Below are positions 13,466 through 48,077 of a stretch of 64,000 nt of DNA, piece by piece; position 1 is the first letter of the stretch; every line of letters starts with the position of its first letter. Below the pieces are notes generated by a model. The model did no database searches and had not been told where the DNA came from. It worked only from the letters and a program-made list of their open reading frames with translations. Location of the stretch: contig DJJU01000001.1 in NCBI GenBank assembly GCA_002434305.1, positions 53,051-117,050 of the forward strand, given 5' to 3'. Both the position numbers and the translations under genes were made by a program. Origin of the DNA: Alicycliphilus sp. UBA6560. Lineage in GTDB: Bacteria; Pseudomonadota; Gammaproteobacteria; Burkholderiales; Burkholderiaceae_C.

Positions 13466-14617
13466 TCAAAGCCAGCGCTTGCGCCGGAAGTACACCAGCA
13501 TGCCCAGCACCACGGCCGCCATGACGCCCAGCACATACAGATACCCGTAGCGCCAGTGCAGCTCGGGCATGTTGAAACGGCTGCCGGTGTCGAAATTCAT
13601 GCCGTACAGCCCGGTGATGAAGGTCAGCGGCAGGAAGATGGTGGCGACGATGGTCAGCCCCTTCATGATGTTGTTCATGCGCCGGCTGACGGCCGACAGG
13701 TACACATCCAGCAGGCTGGAGGCCATCTCGCGATAGGTCTCGACAAAATCGATCATGACCACGCTGTGGTCGTGGCAGTCGCGCAGGTACACGCGCGTGC
13801 TCTCGTGGATGAACGGGGCATCCCCCCGCATGAGGCTGGCGATGGCCTCACGCTGCGGCCACCAGGCGCGGCGCATGACCACCAGCTCGCGCTTGGCGTA
13901 GTGCAGCTTGTTGCGCGCGTCGCGGTCGTCGTCGAGCAGTATCTCGTCCTCCAGCGCCTCCAGCTCGTCACCCAGTTCGTCCAGCAGGGGAAAGCCCGAG
14001 TCCACGATGGTGTCCAGCAGCGCGTACAGCAGGTAGTCGGCGCCCAGGCGGCGGATCTTGCCGTTGGCCCGGATGCGCTGGCGCACCGGCTCGAAGATGT
14101 CCTGGCTGCCGTCGTTGATGCTGACCACGAAGTTGCGGCCGAGGAACAGGCTGACCTGGTCCACCCGGCAGGCTCCGCATTCGCCATCGCCGCCCTTGTC
14201 GCGCCGCACCAGGTTCAGGATGACGAACTGGTGCGCGTCGTAGGCCTCGGCCTTGGCGCGCTGGCCGCGGTGCAATACGTCCTCCAGCGCCAGCGGGTGC
14301 AGGCCCATGGACTCCTTCAGGCTTTGCAGCTGCTGCGGACTGGGCAGGCCCTGCAGGTGCAGCCAAAAGACATGCCTGGTCTCTGCCAGGGCCATCCCGG
14401 CAGCTTCGATGGTGGGCCCCTGCTGCTCGACCACGTCGCCCTCGCGGGCGTAGTGCATCAGCAGCAGCCGTGCAGGCGGCAGTGGCGCATCGTCCTGCGG
14501 ACTAGCGACGGCTTCGAGTGAGCCCGGCGGCGCACCGGGGCGGTTGTTGCGGCGGCGAAAGCCGTAGCGACGCAAGGTGCGGAGACGGGCAGTGACAGGG
14601 CGTTTCACAAGGGGCAT
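13466..14617 (-). CDS. corA: CorA-family magnesium/cobalt transporter
   Basis: C-terminal LPLTFITGLYGMNF (GMN motif) followed by a final TM helix. Start taken at MPLVKRPV (ATG 14617). Confidence 0.85.
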   Translation of the reverse strand: MPLVKRPVTARLRTLRRYGFRRRNNRPGAPPGSLEAVASPQDDAPLPPARLLLMHYAREGDVVEQQGPTIEAAGMALAETRHVFWLHLQGLPSPQQLQSLKESMGLHPLALEDVLHRGQRAKAEAYDAHQFVILNLVRRDKGGDGECGACRVDQVSLFLGRNFVVSINDGSQDIFEPVRQRIRANGKIRRLGADYLLYALLDTIVDSGFPLLDELGDELEALEDEILLDDDRDARNKLHYAKRELVVMRRAWWPQREAIASLMRGDAPFIHESTRVYLRDCHDHSVVMIDFVETYREMASSLLDVYLSAVSRRMNNIMKGLTIVATIFLPLTFITGLYGMNFDTGSRFNMPELHWRYGYLYVLGVMAAVVLGMLVYFRRKRWL

Positions 14618-14845
14618 CCTACGAGGGCCGAGTAGGACGACTCCCTTTTCACGCCTGCCGTGTGATGTGACTCCAGGCATGGCGATCCGAGCAGCCCCGT
14701 GACAGAACAGGCACTCCCTCAGCCAGCCACCTGCCCGCGGTTCTTCGCGGCAATTGTCGACGGCGGCGCAACTGGGGGCCGCGCGGCCGCCGGAGGGCTG
14801 GCCATGGAGACCTCGAAAGACCAGTTGCCGTGCCAGGAACGCCCT

Positions 14846-17800
14846 TCAATGGCGTGCGCGTTGACGCATGAACTGCCACGCCAGCACGGCCATGCACAAC
14901 GCCAGCGCCAGCCGTCCCCACGCTGACAGCGTGGGAATGGGCGCCGCACCGCTGGGCGGAGCTGCTGCCACAGCAGGGCCACCAGGGTCCAGGATCACAG
15001 CGTTGGGCTGCAGGTCATCGTCGCCCTGCTGACCATCCACCACGGTGAGCGTGATGGTGTTGCCCGAGACTACGGCGTCCGGGTAGGCGTACCAGTGCGG
15101 TGTTGGATTGACCAGCGTAGGTCCGAACTTCCAGTACTGCGTACCCGGCGGCAGGGCCGTGGGATAGGTGAGCGTCACCGAAAATGAAGAGCCCGGCACG
15201 CCGCTGATGGCTACGAGGTCGAACAGACCCAGAGGAAAGGACACCCCGGCTGGCGGCGCCACGGACGGCGACTTCGGATGCCCAGTCAGAGGGATAAAGC
15301 CTGCATTCTGGTACTTGCCCATGCCCGGCTCAGCAAACACCCAGGCCGGTGTGGAAATGGTTGCCGACGCCGGACCGGAGGAAGTTGTTCCTGTCAGGCT
15401 GGAGCCGGCCGTCGGCGGGGGCGCAACCGTGAAGGCCTGCACCACATTGACCGCGGGGTTGTGGCTCGCATCTCCAGCCTGCGAAGCAATCACGTGACAG
15501 GTGCCGATGCCCAACAGACGCACGGTAGTGCCCTCTACTGCGCACACTAGCGGGGTGTCCGTGCCAAAGGCCACCGGCAGGCCCGAACTGGCGCTGGCTG
15601 CCACGACGAAGTCGGCATCACCCAGCACCCTGTTGGCCAGGACGCCAAAAGTGATGGACTGCAACGCCTTGCCCACGGACACGGTCACCGTGCCCGACAC
15701 TGGCTCGTAGGTCGCATCCCCCGCCTTGGTGGCCGTGACCTCGCACAGGCCCACCGCTGTTCCAGTCAAGGTAACCCCCGACACCGAGCACACGCTGGCG
15801 CCAGAGGTGACGGCGTAGCTCACCGCACCGTTGCCCGCGCCGCCCGCGGTGGACAGAGTGGATGTTCCGTTCAGAGCCAACGAGGGCGACGACGACGCCA
15901 CGACCAGCGCAGGCTGGTCCGCCTTCGTGACCAGCACTGCTACGCTAGACGTGGCAGCGCCATAGTTGATGTCTGCGGCCTTGGTCGCGGTCACGGTGCA
16001 TCCGCCCACCCCGATACCGGTCAGCACGTTCCCAGTGACTTGGCACTGGCTGACCCCGGCGGTGACAGCGAAGGTCACCGCGCCCGTGCCGGATCCTCCA
16101 CGTGTCCCCAGGGTTGCCGTTCCCAGGTAGGCGATGGTGTTGGGCGAAGCCGTGGCGACCAGTGGTTCCTGCGAGGCCTGCTCCACTTGAATGTCCACCG
16201 TGGCCGATGCCGGGTCATGCCGAGTGTCACCCGCCTTGGTCGCAGTCACCGTGCAGGTGCCGGGCGTTACGCCTGTGACCACGTTGCCCGACAGCGAGCA
16301 CGAGGCAGCGCCGGCCGTGATGGCCAGCGTGACAGCGCCAGACCCGGCCCCCCCCGAAGTTGCCAGCGTTGCTGTGCCGTGGACGGCGATGGTGGAAGAC
16401 GAGGAGGCGCTGACGGCCCAGCCAACCTGCGGGGCCCGACCCACGGTGATGACGACCTGCCCCGACACCTCGTTGTAGAGCGCATCAGCAGCACGCGTGG
16501 CCGTGACCGTGCACGAGCCTACATCCACCCCGGTCAGCACATTGCCTGTAACAGTGCAGACGTCCATCCCTGCGGTGACCGCAAAAGTCACTGCGCCCGC
16601 GTTCGAGCCGCCAGTCGCCCCTAGTGTGGTGGTGCCGTTGAATGCGATGCTGGCGGGCGAGGCAGTCGCCGTCAGCGGAGCCTGGTTGGCCTTGCTGACG
16701 TTGATATCCACTGTGGCTGTGGCCTGCAGGTAGTTGGCATCGGTGGCCTTGGTGGCTGTGATAGTACATGGCCCCACCCCCACGCCCGTGACCGTCGTGC
16801 CGGAGACGGAGCAGTTGGGCGCTCCTGCTGTTACCGCGTAACTCACCGCTCCGGTGCCCGTTCCACCAGTCGTGGACAGCGCCGCCGTACCGCTGTAGTG
16901 GATATTGGCCGGACTGGCCGCAACGGCCAGCGTGGCTTGCGCGCCCTTGGCGTTGGTCAACACGAGGGGAACCTGTACGCCACCGGCAGTGGCTGTCACG
17001 TTGTAGGTGCCCGCCAGCATGTTGGCAGCCGCATTCAGCGTGGCGATCCCGGCTGTGTTGGTGGTTGCCGAGCCACCCGCGTCCAGCGCCGCCGAAGCCC
17101 CCGATACCGGAGCGCTGAAAGTAACCACCACGTTGGACAGAGCGCGATCGTCCACGTCGAACACCTGCACCTGCAGCGGGGCGGCAAACGCCTGGCCGAT
17201 CGGCGTGGACTGCGGGGCCCCAGCAAGTACATTGATGCGATGGGGCGGGCCGAAGGGATCGATGCGCAGCACCAGGCCATTGGCAGCAGACACGCCCGCC
17301 GCGGCACTGGAGGTAGGGTTCGCCAAGCCTTCCCAACCCGAGGTGGTCACCCCGCCCACCGAGAGGATCGTGTCGGTTTCCACCAGGGTGGCGGACAAGG
17401 CATGCATGGCATCGGCCCCGCTGGTGCCGAGAAAACCGGAATACACGAAACGGTTGGGCGCAGCCCACGCAATCTTGCTCAGGAAGCCATCTTGCTGACC
17501 GGGCTGGACAGTGGCGATGCCGCTTTGTGCCACCACGGGAAAGCCCGTCCCGGCGCTGGTCGCACCCGTGGCGTACAACGCATCGCCATCGTCTGCCAAG
17601 GCCGCCACGTAGTCGTAGCTTGAGCCGCCCAAGTAGGTGGCAAAGGGCGCCGTGGGATGCAGTCGGACGACGAAGCCATCCATGCCGCCATGCCCTGCGC
17701 TTTGCGGGCCGCCCGCGATGAACTGCGTGCCAGCATCGTTCGCGGGAAACTGGGGCGCGTTGGTCTCGCCGGCAACGACCAGCCCGCCACCCAAGTCGGC

Positions 17801-19468
17801 CACCAATGCCAGCGCGCGGTCGATGCCGACGTTGCCGTTGGCCGGAAGAGAGCCCGTGAGGATCTGCATCTGCGCGTTGGTGCCATCAGCTCCAACGAAG
17901 GCCACGAAGGCATCCACCGCGTCCTGCGACCGGGATGCCAGCACGGTGCGCGGCCCGATAAGCGTCGGTAGCCCATCGGTAGAGTCGGTAGCCCCAGCCA
18001 CGGCCAGGCGGCCGTCCGCCAGCAACGCCAGCGCATTGCCCATCTCATCGCCGCCGTTGCCGCCCAGGAAACCTGCATAGTCCAGGCCGCTGCCATTGGC
18101 GGCCACGCGCGCCACGAACGTGTCCATGCCGCCGGTACCAAGCTGGTCGCCCCCGTGGCTCAGACGGGGCCCTCCGAAGGCCGGGAACGCCGGTGCTGCC
18201 GTGGTACACCCTGCTGCAGCCGTAGTAGTGCAAATGGAAAAACCCGTCACGTAGGCGCGTCCTGCCGCATCGACGACGATGGCATTGGCTTGGTCGTCCT
18301 CGGCGCCGCCGATGAAGCCTGCATACGAGACCGAGCTGCCATCGCTGCCCAGGCGCATCACGAAGGCATCCCGGTCCTGCTGCATTTTGGTACGCCGCAA
18401 ACGGTTGTCCGGATCGGTACCTGCTGTGGGGAAATCGGTGGAATGGGTGGCGCCCGCAAGGTAGATCCGGCCGCTGCCATCCAGTGCCAAGCCGTGGCAG
18501 GCATCGTTAGCACTGCCGCCCACATAGGCCACAAACTGGGCCACGCCCTTCGGGTCGAACTTCACCACGAAGGCGTCGTCGCCCCCGCGGCTGCCTGCAC
18601 CGCCAGTGATCGGCAGATTCAGCGACTGGGTCGCGCCACAGGCGAAGGTATTGCCGTCCTGGTCACGTGCTACGGTAAACACTTGGTCGTCCGCATTGCC
18701 ACCCACCAAGCCCGAGTAGCCCGTCCAGGCCGGGTCGATGACCAGGGGTTTACGGCTGTCGTGCGGCGCCAGCGCGAAACGCACGCGCCAGCTGCGCTCG
18801 CCTGCCTGCTCTACCACGTAGCGAGCGGCCACCGTGACGCGCTGCGCGCCTTCGGGCTGATACACCACGGGCGCCGCATCGACCAGCACCTCGTCGCCCA
18901 CGCGCCACTGCAGCGAGCCATCGGGCTGCAGGCTCAGGGCGTCGGCACCGTCCACGCGCCACGCCACCTGCTCGGGGTCGGCGCCGGGTGCCAGCTCAAA
19001 CTGGTACTTGAAACCGCCGGCATTGCCGCCGAAATAGGCGTCGATGCCCGGCCACACACCGCGGTAGGCCACCGCGCCATAGCTCTTCAGCCCGGTCTGC
19101 CATTGCGACCGGTCTCCCACCAACCAGTGGTAGACCGTCGGTGATGCCTGCATACCCTGCGGAGCCACCCCTGCCGTGCCTTCGAAGCGGTAGCGCAGTC
19201 CGCCGTCCCCGGCCGCCTGCAACCCCCCATTCGCAGCCTTAGCCCACGTGGCTGGCATGCGCCGCGACTGCAGCAGCACGCCCGTGTCGTCGAAGGCGAG
19301 CTGCCGACCTGCTGCTGCCGCGCGAAATCGTGCCAGTCCATCGCTGGCGGGCATGGCCATGAAGCGGTTCTCGCGTCCCGCTAATTCGCGCTGCACGACG
19401 GGCTTAGTCTGCGACCAAGAGGGCAAGGCGCCCGCAACGAGCGCCAGGGCCAGAACGGTACAACGCAT
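14846..19468 (-). CDS. 1540-aa secreted surface protein: signal peptide, SBBP-like beta-propeller repeats, about 6 Ig-like repeats, choice-of-anchor-like module, IPTL-CTERM sorting signal
   Basis: Signal peptide MRCTVLALALVAGALPSWSQ. Recurrent blade motifs DDAFVVKFDPKG, DAFVMRLGSDGS, DTFVARVAANGSGLDYAGFLGG, DGFVVRLHP. The C-terminus APIPTLSAWGRLALALCMAVLAWQFMRQRARH has IPTL, a hydrophobic helix and a basic tail. ORF trimmed to ATG 19468. Confidence 0.85.
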   Translation of the reverse strand: MRCTVLALALVAGALPSWSQTKPVVQRELAGRENRFMAMPASDGLARFRAAAAGRQLAFDDTGVLLQSRRMPATWAKAANGGLQAAGDGGLRYRFEGTAGVAPQGMQASPTVYHWLVGDRSQWQTGLKSYGAVAYRGVWPGIDAYFGGNAGGFKYQFELAPGADPEQVAWRVDGADALSLQPDGSLQWRVGDEVLVDAAPVVYQPEGAQRVTVAARYVVEQAGERSWRVRFALAPHDSRKPLVIDPAWTGYSGLVGGNADDQVFTVARDQDGNTFACGATQSLNLPITGGAGSRGGDDAFVVKFDPKGVAQFVAYVGGSANDACHGLALDGSGRIYLAGATHSTDFPTAGTDPDNRLRRTKMQQDRDAFVMRLGSDGSSVSYAGFIGGAEDDQANAIVVDAAGRAYVTGFSICTTTAAAGCTTAAPAFPAFGGPRLSHGGDQLGTGGMDTFVARVAANGSGLDYAGFLGGNGGDEMGNALALLADGRLAVAGATDSTDGLPTLIGPRTVLASRSQDAVDAFVAFVGADGTNAQMQILTGSLPANGNVGIDRALALVADLGGGLVVAGETNAPQFPANDAGTQFIAGGPQSAGHGGMDGFVVRLHPTAPFATYLGGSSYDYVAALADDGDALYATGATSAGTGFPVVAQSGIATVQPGQQDGFLSKIAWAAPNRFVYSGFLGTSGADAMHALSATLVETDTILSVGGVTTSGWEGLANPTSSAAAGVSAANGLVLRIDPFGPPHRINVLAGAPQSTPIGQAFAAPLQVQVFDVDDRALSNVVVTFSAPVSGASAALDAGGSATTNTAGIATLNAAANMLAGTYNVTATAGGVQVPLVLTNAKGAQATLAVAASPANIHYSGTAALSTTGGTGTGAVSYAVTAGAPNCSVSGTTVTGVGVGPCTITATKATDANYLQATATVDINVSKANQAPLTATASPASIAFNGTTTLGATGGSNAGAVTFAVTAGMDVCTVTGNVLTGVDVGSCTVTATRAADALYNEVSGQVVITVGRAPQVGWAVSASSSSTIAVHGTATLATSGGAGSGAVTLAITAGAASCSLSGNVVTGVTPGTCTVTATKAGDTRHDPASATVDIQVEQASQEPLVATASPNTIAYLGTATLGTRGGSGTGAVTFAVTAGVSQCQVTGNVLTGIGVGGCTVTATKAADINYGAATSSVAVLVTKADQPALVVASSSPSLALNGTSTLSTAGGAGNGAVSYAVTSGASVCSVSGVTLTGTAVGLCEVTATKAGDATYEPVSGTVTVSVGKALQSITFGVLANRVLGDADFVVAASASSGLPVAFGTDTPLVCAVEGTTVRLLGIGTCHVIASQAGDASHNPAVNVVQAFTVAPPPTAGSSLTGTTSSGPASATISTPAWVFAEPGMGKYQNAGFIPLTGHPKSPSVAPPAGVSFPLGLFDLVAISGVPGSSFSVTLTYPTALPPGTQYWKFGPTLVNPTPHWYAYPDAVVSGNTITLTVVDGQQGDDDLQPNAVILDPGGPAVAAAPPSGAAPIPTLSAWGRLALALCMAVLAWQFMRQRARH
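15425..16940 (-). repeat. In-frame tandem array of about 240-nt units encoding Ig-like domains inside the giant gene
   Basis: Repeating pattern ...ASP..I...GT..L.T.GG.G.GAV.(F/Y)AVT.G...C.V.G..(V/L)TG..VG.CTVTATKA.D..Y... occurs at least 5 times, followed by a more divergent sixth unit. Confidence 0.65.
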
Positions 19469-19544
19469 GATGAGTGTCCAGGCAGGGCAGATGATCAGGG
19501 GTAGCGGGCCCAACCGGGGCAGGCAAGCATTTGCACGCGCGCCA

Positions 19545-20063
19545 TCAGGACCGGGGGGGAAATACGCCCTGCAACGCAATGATGAAATTTGCGGTCAGGT
19601 AGGGTGGCATGTTGTTGTGCGGCTGACCGGCACCGGCCACGCTGACCGCCTGCACAGACATGGGCTCGCTGGGGGCCATACTGGCGTAGGCCCGCGCAGG
19701 CGAGGCACCCAGGGCAGCGCCCGCGGGGTCGGATACGGCCGGGCCGGCTGCATCGCCGCCGTACAGCATGTGGGTATGCATGGGTATTTCGCTGGGTAGC
19801 AGGCTCACAGATTCCGCTCCGCCCGCTTCCCCGATGTCATAACTGAGCAAGCCTGGACCCTGCCCCCACATCATGGGCACGCGGCCTTGCAGGTCAGGCA
19901 GAGCAAAATTGCTCTTCCCATTACCGCCGTATGTCGTGCCCAGCAGTGAAAACAGCGCAGTGTTCTGCGATAGGGGCAGGAGTTGCCCATCGCACATTGC
20001 CCACCCCTTGGGTGCGAAGTTGAAGGGAACAATACGGATTTCCGCAACGAAGGGATCGGCCAT
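19545..20063 (-). CDS. Phage-tail-collar domain protein (COG4675/MdpB-like), paralog 3
   Basis: MADPFVAEIRIVPFNFAPKGWAMCDGQLLPLSQNTALFSLLGTTYGGNGKSNFALPDLQGRVP...GAGQPHNNMPPYLTANFIIALQGVFP. Confidence 0.85.
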   Translation of the reverse strand: MADPFVAEIRIVPFNFAPKGWAMCDGQLLPLSQNTALFSLLGTTYGGNGKSNFALPDLQGRVPMMWGQGPGLLSYDIGEAGGAESVSLLPSEIPMHTHMLYGGDAAGPAVSDPAGAALGASPARAYASMAPSEPMSVQAVSVAGAGQPHNNMPPYLTANFIIALQGVFPPRS

Positions 20064-20090
20064 GGTGCGCAGGTCTCTGGGTTTAGTCGA

Positions 20091-20585
20091 TCAGTTCTGC
20101 GAGGGGAAGATACCCTGCAGCGCAATCACGAAATTCAACGTGATGAAGGGGGGCAGGTTCAAGTGGGACTGACTCCCCCCCACGGATGTGATCGCATCGG
20201 TGCGGGTGGCTGCCGTGGCTGCCGCAGCGTAGTTGCCCCGCGAGGCGGCAAAGGCATTCCCCGTCGGGCCCGTGGCATGCCCCACTGCCGAGGTGGCACT
20301 CGGCACATGGGTGTGTGCCGGCATTTCGTTGATCGACAGCGTGTGCTCTTCAGCGCCCCCTCGGGTTCCCCGCGGATACCCGGGCGCCACGTGGATGGGC
20401 ATGCGCCCGCGAAAATCCGGCAGGGCGAAATTGACCCGCCCATCGCCACCGAACGTGGTTCCAAGCAGGGAAAAGAGCCCCTGGTTCTGGTTGATGGGCA
20501 ACAGTTGGCCGTTGCACAGCGCCCAGCCCTTGGGAGCAAAGCTGAAGGAAGCGATGCGGATTTCTCCGAGAAACGGTTCTGCCAT
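20091..20585 (-). CDS. Phage-tail-collar domain protein (COG4675/MdpB-like), paralog 2
   Basis: MAEPFLGEIRIASFSFAPKGWALCNGQLLPINQNQGLFSLLGTTFGGDGRVNFALPDFRGRMP...GGSQSHLNLPPFITLNFVIALQGIFP. Confidence 0.85.
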   Translation of the reverse strand: MAEPFLGEIRIASFSFAPKGWALCNGQLLPINQNQGLFSLLGTTFGGDGRVNFALPDFRGRMPIHVAPGYPRGTRGGAEEHTLSINEMPAHTHVPSATSAVGHATGPTGNAFAASRGNYAAAATAATRTDAITSVGGSQSHLNLPPFITLNFVIALQGIFPSQN

Positions 20586-20589
20586 GACG

Positions 20590-21096
20590 TCAGGTCGGCG
20601 ACGGATAGATGCCGAAGAGCGAGATGATGAAACTCACGCACAGGAACGGAGGCCGGTTCTCGTGCGGTTGGCTGCCTCCGGCCGACAACAGCGTGCCGGG
20701 GTGCATAGGTTGCGCCGCAGGCGCGGCATTCACGAAGTTCTTGTAGTCGCGGTGCCGCGCAGGCAATGCGCCTACGGGCGAGGCCACATACCCCGTGCCC
20801 GCAGCCACCATCAGAGTGTGGTTGTGGCGGGGGATTTGACTGACGGTGAGCGTCACCGCCTCGACCCCGCCCATCTCGGCCAAATAGTGGCCGTTGCCTT
20901 GGTGGATGGGAATGCGCCCGCGCAGGTCCGGCAACCCGAACGTGTTCTGTCCGTCCCCGCCATAGGTGGTGCCGATCAGCTGGAACAACGTCTCGTTCCC
21001 GGCAATCGGCAGTATCTGGCCCTCACAGAAGGCCCAGCCTACTGGGGCGAAATTCCCGGCGAACATGCGAATTTCGCCAATGTAGGGTTGTGCCAT
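20590..21096 (-). CDS. Phage-tail-collar domain protein (COG4675/MdpB-like), paralog 1
   Basis: MAQPYIGEIRMFAGNFAPVGWAFCEGQILPIAGNETLFQLIGTTYGGDGQNTFGLPDLRGRIP...GGSQPHENRPPFLCVSFIISLFGIYP. Only 4 nt separate it from paralog 2. Confidence 0.85.
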   Translation of the reverse strand: MAQPYIGEIRMFAGNFAPVGWAFCEGQILPIAGNETLFQLIGTTYGGDGQNTFGLPDLRGRIPIHQGNGHYLAEMGGVEAVTLTVSQIPRHNHTLMVAAGTGYVASPVGALPARHRDYKNFVNAAPAAQPMHPGTLLSAGGSQPHENRPPFLCVSFIISLFGIYPSPT

Positions 21097-21310
21097 GTAG
21101 CGCTGCAGGCCGTACCGACCTGTTGGACAGGGAACGAAAAGGATGGAAAGGTGTCAGCCCGCAGATCGTGCCAGTGACTACCTCGTAAAGCGCGCCAATA
21201 TAAAAGGGGTCACTCCTTGATGCAAGACAAACATAGCGTTGCAGTTAAAACTAAGGCAATATCTGCGCCGCTTGCAATCCTTCAGACCTCATTTCTGCCG
21301 CCCCTTCTTC

Positions 21311-21718
21311 ATGAATCGTGAACGCCGCACCTTCCTCAAGGCCGCAGGCATGGCCTCGACTGCTGCGGCCTCGGCAGCAATGGGCCATGCTGCTGCCGCC
21401 ATCCCCGCATCGCAGCAGCAGTTAGGCACCATGACCCTGCTTCGCAGTCATTTCGCGCGACTTGCGGGGGAAGGGTTCACCTTCCTGCACCCTAGTGGTG
21501 TCCGCGGTAGCGCCACCTTGCTGCATGCCCACCCACTGGAAGGCGCGGAGGATGGCGAGCGCAGCTTTCGACTGGTCTTTGCTCCAAATGACTCCTCCTT
21601 GAGCCAGGACACGTGGGAGGTTTCCCACCCTGCCCTGGGCACGCATGCAATCTTCGTGAGCCCTAATGACGCACAAGGCCAGAAGATCGAAGCCATCTTC
21701 AACCGCCATCAACCCTAG
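21311..21718 (+). CDS. Small Tat-signal protein of unknown function (paralog of 22234..22680)
   Basis: MNRERRTFLKAAGMASTAAASAAMGHAAAA is a twin-arginine signal. The C-terminal core SFRLVFAPNDSSLSQDTWEVSHPALGTHAIFVSP aligns with QFRISFQGPADAFLTQGTYRMQHPQLGDYAIFMTP of the neighbouring ORF. Confidence 0.65.
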   Translation: MNRERRTFLKAAGMASTAAASAAMGHAAAAIPASQQQLGTMTLLRSHFARLAGEGFTFLHPSGVRGSATLLHAHPLEGAEDGERSFRLVFAPNDSSLSQDTWEVSHPALGTHAIFVSPNDAQGQKIEAIFNRHQP

Positions 21719-22262
21719 CTACAGGCAGTGCGCGTTTCGCCGTGGGCGCTGGCGGGCGACGCATGCATACATACACTCCTTCCAGTTCGCCGGTGATGAA
21801 ACCCTCGCGCTGGTACAGCCCGTAAGCCGGGTTGCTGACTTCGACATACAGCAGCGTCTCGCGTCCCTGCCGGTCCGCGCACTCAAGGACCATGCGCACC
21901 AGCGCCGCCCCCCAGCCGCGGCGGCGCCAGGGTGGTAGCAGAGCGATGTCCATCAGGCGCAACTGTCCTGTTGGCGCCGCCAGGTACAGACGACCTACCG
22001 CTGTGCCGAGGTGCTCCACCACCATGAACGAAGCAGTGGGGTAATGCTTACGGTAATGGTGGTCCTGAAGCGCGAACTGCGAATCCGAAAACGCCTGCTT
22101 CTGTGCCTCGGTCCACGGCGTCAGTGCCAATTCAGGGTCCCGCACCGTACGGTACAGCGCACGCAGGAACGGCAGGTCCGTGATAGTGGCCGGCCTCAGG
22201 TGCAGCGCGGGCGGCAACAGCGATAAGTTCAGGTCACCCCACATGCGAGAAACATGCTTCAT
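21699..22262 (-). CDS. GNAT-family N-acetyltransferase
   Basis: LRLMDIALLPPWRRRGWGAALVRMVLECA...YGLYQREGF contains the acetyl-CoA binding R-x-x-G-x-G/A motif. The 3' end overlaps the convergent gene by 20 nt. The start may be ATG 22244. Confidence 0.75.
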   Translation of the reverse strand: MKHVSRMWGDLNLSLLPPALHLRPATITDLPFLRALYRTVRDPELALTPWTEAQKQAFSDSQFALQDHHYRKHYPTASFMVVEHLGTAVGRLYLAAPTGQLRLMDIALLPPWRRRGWGAALVRMVLECADRQGRETLLYVEVSNPAYGLYQREGFITGELEGVYVCMRRPPAPTAKRALPVARVDGG

Positions 22263-22680
22263 AGACGAAGCCTTCAGGCCGGCGCGCCACAGGCGTCATG
22301 AAGATGGCGTAGTCACCCAGTTGCGGATGTTGCATTCGGTAGGTGCCCTGGGTCAGAAACGCGTCGGCTGGCCCCTGAAAACTGATGCGGAACTGGTGGG
22401 CGCCAGGCGCTGCTGGAGACTCGGCCACTTCGCAGACCGTTAGTGGGACCGTAATAGGGCCAGCGGGCGTAGCCAGGTGTGCCAGCACCTGCTGACGCGC
22501 AAAACACTGCGCGTCGGGCCAGGTAAGCGTGCGGGAGAACAATGCGGAGTCGAGCACGGCGGGAGGTCGGGAGTCAGAAAGCAACGCTGCATGCAAGCAC
22601 CGTGCATGCGCGGCTGCAACGCTGAACGAGTATAGCGATGGGGTTCCTGCCAGCGCTCGGGCCGCATGTCCTCCAGCCAT
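22234..22680 (-). CDS. Small protein of unknown function, paralog of 21311..21718, with no evident signal peptide
   Basis: Shares a core with the Tat paralog (see 21311..21718). ATG 22680 lies 35 nt after the glmS stop. In-frame GTG 22557 would give a 107-aa product covering just the conserved core. Confidence 0.5.
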   Translation of the reverse strand: MAGGHAARALAGTPSLYSFSVAAAHARCLHAALLSDSRPPAVLDSALFSRTLTWPDAQCFARQQVLAHLATPAGPITVPLTVCEVAESPAAPGAHQFRISFQGPADAFLTQGTYRMQHPQLGDYAIFMTPVARRPEGFVYEACFSHVG

Positions 22681-22714
22681 TCGACAGCGGCGGGCGGCTC
22701 TTCTTCACCCCCGC

Positions 22715-24616
<1,902 letters not shown>

Positions 24617-45629: not shown

Positions 45630-48077
45630 ATGCTGCGTATCTTTTTAATATTTTTCCTGTCCATCGGATTCAACGGCATCAATTGGGCAAAAGACGCGCC
45701 TCACGTTTACGCCTTCATTGAAAATATAAATTACGAAACGGGATCAAATCATCTACATATCAATGGCCGATTTACAGCAGGAGACGACAACAAAGCCGGA
45801 ACCACATTCCAGATACAAGCCAAGGACAAGCGTGGAGAAATCGTAAATAAAAATATAAATAGCGAACGCTTCAGCATAGAGGTCAAATTTGAAGATCCAC
45901 TGCCAGGTGGACTTCTCAAAATCAAAGCAAGCGCCGTCTCTCCCGCAGGAGAAAGATTTGACCTCCACCTTGCCGACGGAACCCAGCCCCTCGCCCATAT
46001 ACCAAAGATATACACACGACACTGGGCATTGCTGGGAATTATTCTGACCGCAATCGCACTCACCTATTCAAGGCGAATTCAGCAATCTGGCCTACACCTC
46101 GCCAATTGGACACAACAGCATGTCAAAGGCATAGCTGCCGGAATACTAATTTTCAGCCTCTCGCTAGTTCTCATCGGTATTACGGGGAGTTCTTTTCGCA
46201 TCGCTTTAGAAGGGCCTGTGGCAAAAGCCATCTCCACCGCAAGCGGTAGCGACGCACGAATTTTTAAGCTGCAATCCTCTCGAGGGGATGAGTGGGGAAT
46301 TTTAACGCCCAATATCCTTGCCCAAGTCAACCACACCCCTCCATTTCCAATCATCAATACCAATCTAGGTATCGATGGGCAGAATATGGGCATACTTGGC
46401 ATGACTGGTGCACCCGTTGCACAGTGGGCCGCGATTGCTCGCCCAGCAACATGGGGCTACTTCTTTCTTCCACTTCGTCAAGCCCAATCATGGCAATGGC
46501 AGCTCCCCTTCTGGGGATGTTTGTTGGCCCTATGGTGGCTATTAAATCTCTTCAAACCTCAATCTGCCGGTCGCAATCTTGCACTAGCCACTCTTTTCTG
46601 CATTGCACCTTATGCCGCAGCCTGGTCAAATTGGCCACTCTACTTTACCCTTTTCCCAGTTCTGGCATTTTCCAGCTTTATTAAGCTTCTCGAATCCAAG
46701 AGGATTACACATGCCCTCCTTTGGGGAGCCGGAATAGGATACTCCATTGCAGCCTGGGTATTGACGCTCTATCCCCCATGGATGGTTACCATCGGAACCT
46801 TGTGCGCCCTCCTTTGCATCGGCCTATTATTAGACCGGCGTTCATCACCAGAAATTCAATTCAAGCTGGCGGCAAGCGGTTTAACCTTAGGATTGGTTAT
46901 TGCGACTGTAATTCTGGGGAGTTGGTGGCTCGACACCAGAGATGCTATTGAGCTGACACAGAAGACGGTTTATCCCGGTCAGCGCACCACGCTCACTGGA
47001 GGCACCGGCAGTATTCTCTGGACTTTCCGCGGCTTCACCAACGCCGAAGCTATAACCTTCGGGGGAGATACACCATGGACAAACCAACCGGAGATCAGCT
47101 CATACATTTGGCTTCCATTGGCCATGTTATGGTTATGCGCCTATGGATTGGCACGAGAAAAGAGAAATCGCTGCCTGCTATTAGGCTGCACCATTTTTAT
47201 CGTATATTATTTTGTTTTTACCTTCATAGGAGTTCCCGAGTGGATGGCAAGGCTCACCCTATGGGGGCGGGCGCCAACAAATCGAACTGACGTCTCTCTT
47301 GGGTTGGCATTTATCATTTTACTTTGCCTAACCAGGCGAGAGTGGTTTATTCCCCTGACGCAGGAAAGATCCATCTGGCCGCGTAAAGCAGCGGCAGCCA
47401 TCATCGCCATTGGAAGCTCTTGTTTGGCTTATGCAGTACTAGCCGAAATGCCCGTTTTCATTTTTCCGAAAAATAGCATTGTTTATATTTCTGTTTTCTT
47501 GGTTTTCAGCATTTTCTGCGCCTGGTGGCTAACACATGGGAAAACATCCGGCCCGATAGCTTTACTTCTTATACTCTCACTCGTGGCCACGTTTGGATTC
47601 AACCCAATAGCAAAAGCACCGAAGAAGGTAGAGATGACTCCCGAGGTTAAAATGTTAGCCTCAGATGAGAACGGAAATTTACACAGAATTCTTTTTGTGA
47701 GCGGCGAAGGAATGGGTCCGCACTTATTCGCAGCAGTTGGATTGCCCACTATAAATGGAGTACTTGCATATCCACAGCTTACCTTGTGGAAGAGGCTCCA
47801 ACTTCCAGAGAAGGATTGGCCGATCGTCAATAGGTATCAACATCTTGCATTCACAACCGGAAAACCCGCCAATTACGAAAGCTACTCGGTAAGCTCTCCG
47901 TGGATGGAATGGGTGGTGGTTACAATAGATCCAGAGAAATTTGATTTTAACCTCACAGGGGCGCAAAGGATTACAGCATTCGACGAACAAGCGGAGAACT
48001 TGAGAAAGAGCCCATTATTAAAAGAAATTGGAAAACACAAAGGCTTGGTCTGGTTTTCCGTAACGCCTCCAAGATGA
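45630..48077 (+). CDS. 815-aa polytopic membrane protein, putative GT-C-type (GtrC/ArnT-like) glycosyltransferase, in a low-GC islet
   Basis: N-terminal signal-anchor, a roughly 120-aa hydrophilic beta-rich segment, more than 12 predicted hydrophobic helices, and a soluble C-terminal roughly 150 aa. A/T-rich codons. Genomic context is a flippase-like gene plus a GtrB-like GT2. The family was not recognised by motif. Confidence 0.55.
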   Translation: MLRIFLIFFLSIGFNGINWAKDAPHVYAFIENINYETGSNHLHINGRFTAGDDNKAGTTFQIQAKDKRGEIVNKNINSERFSIEVKFEDPLPGGLLKIKASAVSPAGERFDLHLADGTQPLAHIPKIYTRHWALLGIILTAIALTYSRRIQQSGLHLANWTQQHVKGIAAGILIFSLSLVLIGITGSSFRIALEGPVAKAISTASGSDARIFKLQSSRGDEWGILTPNILAQVNHTPPFPIINTNLGIDGQNMGILGMTGAPVAQWAAIARPATWGYFFLPLRQAQSWQWQLPFWGCLLALWWLLNLFKPQSAGRNLALATLFCIAPYAAAWSNWPLYFTLFPVLAFSSFIKLLESKRITHALLWGAGIGYSIAAWVLTLYPPWMVTIGTLCALLCIGLLLDRRSSPEIQFKLAASGLTLGLVIATVILGSWWLDTRDAIELTQKTVYPGQRTTLTGGTGSILWTFRGFTNAEAITFGGDTPWTNQPEISSYIWLPLAMLWLCAYGLAREKRNRCLLLGCTIFIVYYFVFTFIGVPEWMARLTLWGRAPTNRTDVSLGLAFIILLCLTRREWFIPLTQERSIWPRKAAAAIIAIGSSCLAYAVLAEMPVFIFPKNSIVYISVFLVFSIFCAWWLTHGKTSGPIALLLILSLVATFGFNPIAKAPKKVEMTPEVKMLASDENGNLHRILFVSGEGMGPHLFAAVGLPTINGVLAYPQLTLWKRLQLPEKDWPIVNRYQHLAFTTGKPANYESYSVSSPWMEWVVVTIDPEKFDFNLTGAQRITAFDEQAENLRKSPLLKEIGKHKGLVWFSVTPPR

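Follow-up and report, generated by a model that had tools for sequence, protein, structure and literature searches.

Three short collar-domain genes stand in a row in a 64,000-nucleotide stretch of an Alicycliphilus sp. UBA6560 contig (DJJU01000001.1, positions 53,051 to 117,050; this whole stretch is called the window here), and they raise the question of what proteins resembling the tip of a phage tail fibre do in a region where no phage is apparent. Our analysis indicates that the three proteins, named ColA, ColB and ColC, belong to a gene cassette conserved among bacteria, and we consider it reasonably probable that they are a bacterial, non-viral version of a fibre tip, in which the A, B and C subunits form one knob that works with a giant surface protein.

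The collar triad and its genomic company

A preliminary description of this DNA, made from the sequence alone, had reported three co-oriented open reading frames (ORFs) of 164-172 aa separated by only 4 and 27 nt, and the ORF coordinates bear this out, with gaps at 20586-20589 between ColA and ColB and at 20064-20090 between ColB and ColC. The collar signature and the C-terminal GG.Q.H.N.PP[FY]L...G[IV][FY]P motif that it had pointed out are found in all three proteins, which share 44-45% pairwise identity, and the proposed check against the Pfam Collar hidden Markov model (PF07484, gathering score 24 bits) gave matches for all three at E-values of about 1e-27, starting at residue 7 or 8. The reported lack of signal peptides was likewise confirmed from the ORF starts: each collar ORF opens at the first start codon past the upstream stop, so an N-terminal extension or a signal peptide is impossible. 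The surroundings also agree with the earlier account, which had placed a giant gene 76 nt from the triad and a GNAT acetyltransferase and two small paralogous proteins nearby. The distance runs from ColC to the giant-gene ATG at 19468, with no terminator-like hairpin in the gap, and the paralogs proved to be members of the DUF6916 family.

A scan of species-representative genomes returned at least 562 confirmed relatives, and the best 80 loci, drawn from Proteobacteria, Chloroflexi, Acidobacteria, Bacteroidota, Actinobacteria, Firmicutes and Verrucomicrobia and with ColA identities of 59-70%, were analysed. When every ORF was typed against the window proteins, essentially every locus held one member of each class (A, B and C), while the GNAT was present in about 76 of the 80 and DUF6916 in 61-65. 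Assumption-free clustering of the ORFs within 7 kb gave a single additional recurrent family, namely giant ORFs, whose median length is 1881 aa. Independent gene calls returned the same company: with precomputed Pfam labels, the Chloroflexota layout reads as three Collar genes, GNAT, DUF6916 and a cadherin/Big giant, and the Acidovorax layout is that of the window (DUF6916, GNAT, an optional second DUF6916, three Collar genes and a DUF7948/SBBP giant). According to RefSeq annotation, the cassette also occurs on megaplasmids of Comamonas, Paenibacillus and Ruegeria. The expectation that the triad would co-occur with its neighbours thus held for the GNAT, DUF6916 and giant proteins, but the partner is not specifically an IPTL-CTERM/SBBP giant, as had been supposed; any giant with a lineage-typical anchor may take this place.

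The absence of a prophage or tailocin around the triad, already remarked on in the preliminary description, is supported by both the window and its relatives. The window carries glmS, glmU, rpsI, ahcY, prfC, corA, transporters and sensor kinases, and no phage structural, lysis or integrase gene appeared in the 64-kb ORF map, which was read as a map filtered by GC content at third codon positions (GC3) and not as an every-ORF family scan. No phage family is conserved among the 80 related loci. The triad does not lie within a virion, tail or tailocin gene module, and the best relatives in annotated phages, which are stretches inside larger tail proteins, are no more than 35-38% identical. A relative was found in only 7 of 2.9 million viral contigs, and never within a structural module, so that the suspicion that related triads are always embedded in prophage or tailocin clusters found no confirmation in the 80 loci or in the viral contigs. 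In one viral-contig relative the cassette lies beyond an integrase, at the contig edge, and a 5.4-kb IMG/VR contig (L084) consists only of tandem triads, three in a row and thus nine collar genes.

Three classes, counts in threes and the fibre-tip fold

The three collar proteins are, as judged from their alignments, three ancient orthology classes. Across 73 loci, mean identity within a class is 0.71 (minimum 0.55-0.58), compared with 0.48-0.52 between classes; 53 columns are invariant in all classes and 23 are conserved in a class-specific manner, the latter concentrated in the N- and C-terminal strands. The number of collar genes per locus uncut by a contig edge is 3 in 69 loci, 6 in one and 9 in one, and the sole locus with four collar genes has a ColB split by a frameshift. 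Most loci, 64 in number, are arranged B-A-C, and 4 are arranged A-B-C; the latter order is also that of the window and of Acidovorax L093, which lies outside the 80-locus set. A Gemmatimonadales locus (L042) holds three consecutive triads, again nine collar genes, interleaved with two giant genes whose products bear the C-terminal domain described below for upstream giants; together with the viral-contig array mentioned above, this arrangement suggests local amplification of the whole unit.

Counting in threes extends to natural gene fusions. An exhaustive HMMER search of 1.84 billion representative sequences returned 45,609 matches, and its 150 top-ranking sequences are natural fusions without exception. 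Their junctions lack an initiator methionine and carry Gly/Ser linkers of 6-10 residues, which marks them as genuine fusions, not products of read-through. Counted per chain, the collar domains number two in 36 chains, three in 109, six in three, nine in one and eleven (twelve by phmmer) in one, and no chain among these 150 has 4, 5, 7, 8 or 10, although chains of those sizes would have ranked no lower. Some single chains are clearly A-B-C or B-A-C, and the two-module chains mostly join neighbouring-gene pairs. The two longest series, P0142 (4832 aa, 11-12 collar domains) and P0146 (795 aa, 9 domains), appear to be several pseudo-trimers strung in one polypeptide.

The anatomy of the subunits resembles that of receptor-binding fibre tips. 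An HxH motif is invariant in the window proteins (RHNH, AHTH and MHTH) and occupies residues 91-93 of ColA, being followed by a hypervariable head (residues 94-139 in ColA); this segment of 42-46 residues spans the distance from the HxH to a GGSQPH motif and is hypervariable in all three classes. Column entropy is 2.2 bits in the head, in comparison with 0.35-0.5 bits in the scaffold. The HxH motif, which in T4 gp12 and gp37 coordinates a metal ion, and the C-terminal strand can be aligned to the solved fibre tips 8KEC, 9NXK and 9QGO, and the entire collar protein corresponds to internal modules of PHROG tail-fibre families. The T4 gp12 short tail fibre and the solved tips (1OCY, 5IV5, 8KEC, 9NXK and 9QGO) thus share the collar domain, the HxH and the C-terminal strand with the window proteins. 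These trimeric receptor-binding tips are, however, assembled from a single sequence and borne on long shafts in virions, whereas the window proteins are three diverged paralogs that have no shaft and belong to no phage. On the evidence of the alignments, a conserved scaffold with a variable head is what a receptor-binding tip would show, and it resembles the flexible head patch of a virophage heterotrimer.

The virophage in question, DSLV2 (Chu et al., 2025, J Virol; PMC12724248), has three consecutive, co-oriented PF07484 genes, each encoding a product of about 19 kDa, and the window likewise holds three consecutive, co-oriented PF07484 genes (168, 164 and 172 aa). Co-purification, native polyacrylamide gel electrophoresis and electron microscopy demonstrated that the virophage proteins assemble into a 1:1:1 heterotrimer of about 55 kDa, which forms 16-nm fibres and binds Synechococcus cells (PMC12724248). 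In both systems, each protein combines a collar scaffold with a variable head patch (flexible in DSLV2). The virophage triad stands beside capsid genes and is part of the virion, whereas the bacterial one is chromosomal, is found in at least seven phyla and is accompanied by GNAT, DUF6916 and a giant, without capsid genes; in the window itself the neighbours are GNAT, DUF6916, the giant, glmS and corA and not virophage capsid or core genes. The heterotrimer suggested in the preliminary description receives strong, though indirect, backing from the classes, the counts in threes, the A-B-C fusions and, by analogy, the virophage heterotrimer, and a putative heterotrimeric knob is the best reading of the bacterial triad.

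Evidence for a link to the cell surface comes from the giant proteins. In at least 47 of 75 loci, the cassette has a complete ORF of 1000 aa or more no further than 1.5 kb away; this figure is a minimum, since contig truncation or an artefact of the boundary rule accounts for several of the misses. Orthologs of the window giant occupy the same position in Delftia (L001, 1440 bits) and Acidovorax (L093). In 40 loci the giant lies immediately upstream on the same strand and carries a Sec signal and cadherin/Big repeats, and most of these 40 share an unannotated C-terminal domain with two invariant cysteines. This domain (L002-L080, e.g., L038:9082-9471) comprises approximately 110-130 aa with beta-helix-like TGNT...NG[IV]H turns and a '...C.P' end, and searches of Pfam, NCBIfam and the PDB gave no match to it. 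Lineages differ in their anchors: Bacteroidota giants end in type IX secretion system tails, the Paenibacillus giant has SLH domains, that of Leifsonia an LPXTG-like tail, that of Comamonas YDG and FG-GAP repeats, and those of the window and Delftia IPTL-CTERM. Varied as their architecture is, all of the giants look extracellular. The natural fusions are, at the level of predicted domains, a physical link of collar triplets to giant adhesins, as P0168 combines six Collar domains with ten Cadherin_4 and with Big_9 domains, P0162 three Collar domains with Big_12, Big_13 and Calx-beta, and P0152 six with domains of the Ig and cadherin types. Sec signal peptides are present on several of the fused chains. 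In Ruegeria pomeroyi, a PF07484 protein has been detected in an exoproteome (PMC4949626).

A candidate recognition knob and its competitors

These observations are compatible with a mechanism in which each protein of about 165 aa would be a complete collar-plus-head module, with a conserved HxH scaffold and a hypervariable head of about 45 residues. ColA, ColB and ColC would assemble 1:1:1 into one heterotrimeric knob, whose variable heads may form an asymmetric site for a ligand, probably a glycan, and the knob would act outside the cytoplasm as the recognition module of the adjacent giant adhesin-like protein. More speculatively, the GNAT may acetylate the N-termini of the subunits, which are conserved as MA[QED]P[FY], and the signal-less DUF6916, a putative beta-barrel, may bind the knob in the cytoplasm. 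Pre-assembled cargo without a signal can be exported together with a partner that carries a twin-arginine signal for the Tat pathway, for example in the case of the small and large subunits of hydrogenase. Purely by analogy, the likeness being that of signal-less cargo and a Tat-signal partner, the Tat-signal DUF6916 may ferry the trimer, once assembled, through the membrane by such hitchhiking, while the fused single-chain versions would use Sec signals instead. Taken as a whole, a surface-recognition device of many phyla in which the knob is assembled in the cytoplasm, matured by the GNAT, exported on DUF6916 by Tat hitchhiking and docked on, or working with, giant adhesins seems rather doubtful to us.

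The export step draws on the two forms of DUF6916, one of approximately 100 aa without a signal, present in most loci, and the other of approximately 150 aa, which bears a canonical twin-arginine signal and occurs in at least 16 of 65 loci from five phyla, as well as in the window. The window Tat form, which is transcribed in the opposite direction to ColA and is 100% identical to a protein of a Pulveribacter sp., contains the twin-arginine motif (S/T-R-R-x-F-L-K) and the hydrophobic region in MNRERRTFLKAAGMASTAAASAAMG, and in 20 homologs the second arginine never varies and the first hardly does. Its AlphaFold2 model has a six-stranded beta domain with a predicted local distance difference test (pLDDT) score above 90 and a disordered signal region. 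The closest solved structures to the GNAT in a profile search are N-alpha-acetyltransferases (6WQB/6WQC at 4e-14, Ard1, RimI and Naa50), a similarity confined to the generic GNAT core.

Several observations weigh against the knob as an exported partner of the giants, in whole or in part. The unfused subunits have no signal peptide, and since the Tat type of DUF6916 occurs in only about a quarter of the loci, the Tat route is not universal as proposed. A Foldseek search with the DUF6916 fold in the PDB and BFVD gave nothing significant, the best matches (E 0.04-0.07) being small beta-barrels such as PilZ and SPP1 gp16. The GNAT scores 29.6 bits with the TIGR01575 rimI equivalog model, below the cut-off of 86.4, and its likeness to N-terminal acetyltransferases could be of a general kind. 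In about a dozen loci no giant stands next to the cassette, no domain that might serve as a docking site is common to the giants, and the C-terminal domain of the upstream giants was not found in the window. The R. pomeroyi protein may lie outside any triad, and its detection may stem from cell lysis. Solved homologs contain 3 or 18 chains of one sequence each and so look homo-oligomeric, and the AlphaFold2 monomer model of ColA, with a pLDDT of 45, was unfit for a fold search. Profile-profile comparisons of the collar family with DUF6916 and with the giants' C-terminal domain yielded nothing.

Other explanations must be set against one heterotrimeric knob. The nearest is that the paralogs form three separate homotrimeric knobs with different specificities, which would agree with the single-sequence chains (3 or 18) of 8KEC, 9NXK, 9QGO and T4 gp12, with the full scaffold and HxH kept by each paralog and with the three different hypervariable heads, which could simply mean three specificities. 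We nevertheless hold it to be unlikely, given the strict 1:1:1 retention of the classes across phyla, the A-B-C and B-A-C fusions, the occurrence of chains with at least three modules in multiples of three, as expected of a single-chain trimeric fold, and the clustering of class-specific residues in the N- and C-terminal strands; in the virophage triad, both experiment and prediction favour the heterotrimer (PMC12724248). Lower still we place the idea that the triad provides, in trans, the fibres of a tailocin, contractile injection system or gene-transfer agent elsewhere in the genome. Against it, the subunits open directly at the collar, without an N-terminal shaft or baseplate-attachment region, the conserved partners are GNAT, DUF6916 and giant adhesin-like proteins, and collar triplets are fused into cadherin/Ig giants and not into baseplate proteins; moreover, sheath, tube, baseplate and capsid families are not conserved within 10 kb in the 80 loci, and none was seen on the ORF map of the 64-kb window. 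In favour of this idea, some phage-like particles, such as RcGTA, have fibre genes away from the main cluster. In addition, in two strains of Acaryochloris marina under low far-red light, three adjacent collar genes, an acetyltransferase and hypothetical genes, taken here as the cassette from annotation alone, are co-induced 8- to 16-fold and rank among the genes with the strongest induction (PMC11633204), and the tail-sheath and baseplate genes of a contractile injection system at other loci are co-induced with the collar-annotated genes (PMC11633204; AM1_0269-0274 and AM1_6403-6406). This could be coincidence or a functional link.

An intracellular role, for instance as a decoy or sensor that imitates fibre tips to counter phages and has the GNAT as effector, appears very unlikely. 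The proteins are phage-derived, the unfused subunits carry no signal, and the signal-less DUF6916 and the GNAT are cytoplasmic by sequence, all of which such a role would explain; on the other hand, PADLOC gave no matches for six proteins of the cassette, the neighbours are not defence-island genes, and the linked secreted giants, the Tat-signal DUF6916, the Sec-signal fused homologs and the exoproteome detection of a collar protein (PMC4949626) point outside the cell. A defence function was therefore rejected on account of the PADLOC result, the non-defence neighbours and the link to secreted giants. The possibility that the triad is a decayed prophage or tailocin remnant without a function of its own is effectively refuted. 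RefSeq labels such as 'phage tail protein' or 'tail fiber protein' and the atypical GC3 of the cassette would fit a remnant, but intact ORFs with approximately 71% within-class identity across phyla, conserved non-phage partners and the lack of phage genes nearby led us to reject it, and it would also be at odds with the regulation seen in A. marina and with the detection of COG4675 proteins in soil metaproteomes (PMC5579227).

The reading of the triad as a heterotrimeric knob can be placed among systems already described. The preliminary description had put the system forward as a candidate for an undescribed one, and this stands for the bacterial cassette, since the literature searched contained no mention of DUF6916 and no description of such a cassette. 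It no longer holds in full for heterotrimeric collar triads as such, given the publication of the virophage case in 2025; the collar domain, the COG family and, since that year, a viral heterotrimeric triad are already known. The 'microcystin-dependent' family COG4675, which includes Microcystis MrpB, resembles the window triad in comprising cellular, non-phage collar-domain proteins, and many ColA cluster members bear the COG4675 name 'microcystin-dependent protein' in Joint Genome Institute annotation. Rhizobium RhiB is filed under the same COG (PMC6969944). Unlike the three-gene cassette, RhiB is encoded by a single gene in the quorum-sensing-regulated rhiABC operon, with no triad, GNAT or DUF6916 context reported; it is too divergent to be recovered with a ColA query at E<=1e-5 on Rhizobium plasmids. 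No rhiA, rhiC or LuxR/LuxI-type genes stood out among the neighbours in the window, where no search with RhiA or RhiC sequences was made. A shufflon protein in which PilV is fused to a collar domain shows how a reused phage collar can serve an appendage on the bacterial surface as its module of variable specificity (Milman et al., 2023; PMC9881135), although in that case one fused domain on a pilus tip protein is varied by DNA inversion and there is no three-gene cassette.

These comparisons give the triad a wider relevance. Collar-only 'phage tail proteins' (COG4675) are very common in bacteria, with more than 45,000 representative clusters in the exhaustive search, and are routinely mis-annotated as prophage genes, while a large subset of them forms a fixed cassette of three classes with GNAT, DUF6916 and usually a giant surface protein, the three modules having been fused repeatedly in nature to each other and into giant adhesins. 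A vaguely defined family is thereby turned into a concrete and testable hypothesis, namely that a heterotrimeric recognition knob is attached to giant adhesins or works together with them. If true, this would add one more major example of phage receptor-binding parts put to new use by bacteria and would offer a modular, hypervariable binding scaffold, as well as better genome annotation and prophage prediction; if the Tat-exported device of many phyla proved true, a function would be assigned to the COG4675/RhiB/MrpB family.

Coordinates, mobility and minor observations

The positions of the cassette genes are listed in Table 1. In the signal-less DUF6916 ORF, the domain covers residues 68-144, and the true start is therefore probably further downstream.

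Table 1. Genes of the collar cassette in the window, with positions counted from its first nucleotide.
Feature	Position	Strand	Match or domains
ColA, class A collar/fibre-tip subunit, 168 aa	20590-21096	-	Pfam Collar E=1.2e-28, 99.3 bits
ColB, class B collar/fibre-tip subunit, 164 aa	20091-20585	-	Pfam Collar E=7.2e-27, 93.6 bits
ColC, class C collar/fibre-tip subunit, 172 aa	19545-20063	-	Pfam Collar E=2.4e-27, 95.1 bits
Giant secreted surface protein, 1540 aa	14846-19468	-	Signal peptide, DUF7948, SBBP beta-propeller, Ig-like repeats, choice_anch_U, IPTL-CTERM
Tat-signal DUF6916, 135 aa, starts MNRERRTFLKAAG	21311-21718 (mechanical ORF from 21239)	+	PF21880 E=1.6e-13
Cassette-specific GNAT acetyltransferase, 187 aa	21699-22262	-	Acetyltransf_1 E=1.8e-9
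Signal-less (cytoplasmic) DUF6916, ORF 148 aa	22234-22680	-	PF21880 E=2e-21

The 7.8-kb block 14846-22680 looks horizontally acquired, as far as composition and position can tell. GC3 is 0.64-0.80 in the cassette, against 0.87-0.92 in its flanks, and the cassette block (14846-22715) is directly downstream of glmS, 35 nt past the glmS stop codon, a position that is the classic attTn7 integration hotspot. A search for Tn7-like ends around the cassette returned only chance-level terminal repeats, and no transposase genes were found there. In Acidovorax sp. 1608163 (L093:1-6976), a cassette of the window type stands beside a transposase, a serine recombinase and two ParB/RepB genes and appears to be at the edge of an integrated mobile element. 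Since the block is shared while its flanks in Acidovorax are different and belong to a mobile element, and since its GC3 is low, the cassette seems to move as a unit.

A scan for promoters and terminators across 14500-23000 found nothing above chance. The divergent region between ColA and the Tat form of DUF6916 (21097-21310) is AT-richer, and a weak sigma-70-like element (TTGCAT, 17 nt, TATATT), unreported by the consensus scan, lies on the - strand approximately 100 nt upstream of ColA. Away from the cassette, an 815-aa ORF with a hydrophobic N-terminus (45630-48077, + strand) has a GC3 of 0.48, compared with about 0.9 in its neighbours, and has DUF7657 (E=2e-88) and DUF7654 as its matches. 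Flanked by prfC and a glycosyltransferase gene, it occupies the one low-GC stretch of the window and was probably acquired horizontally in a separate event.

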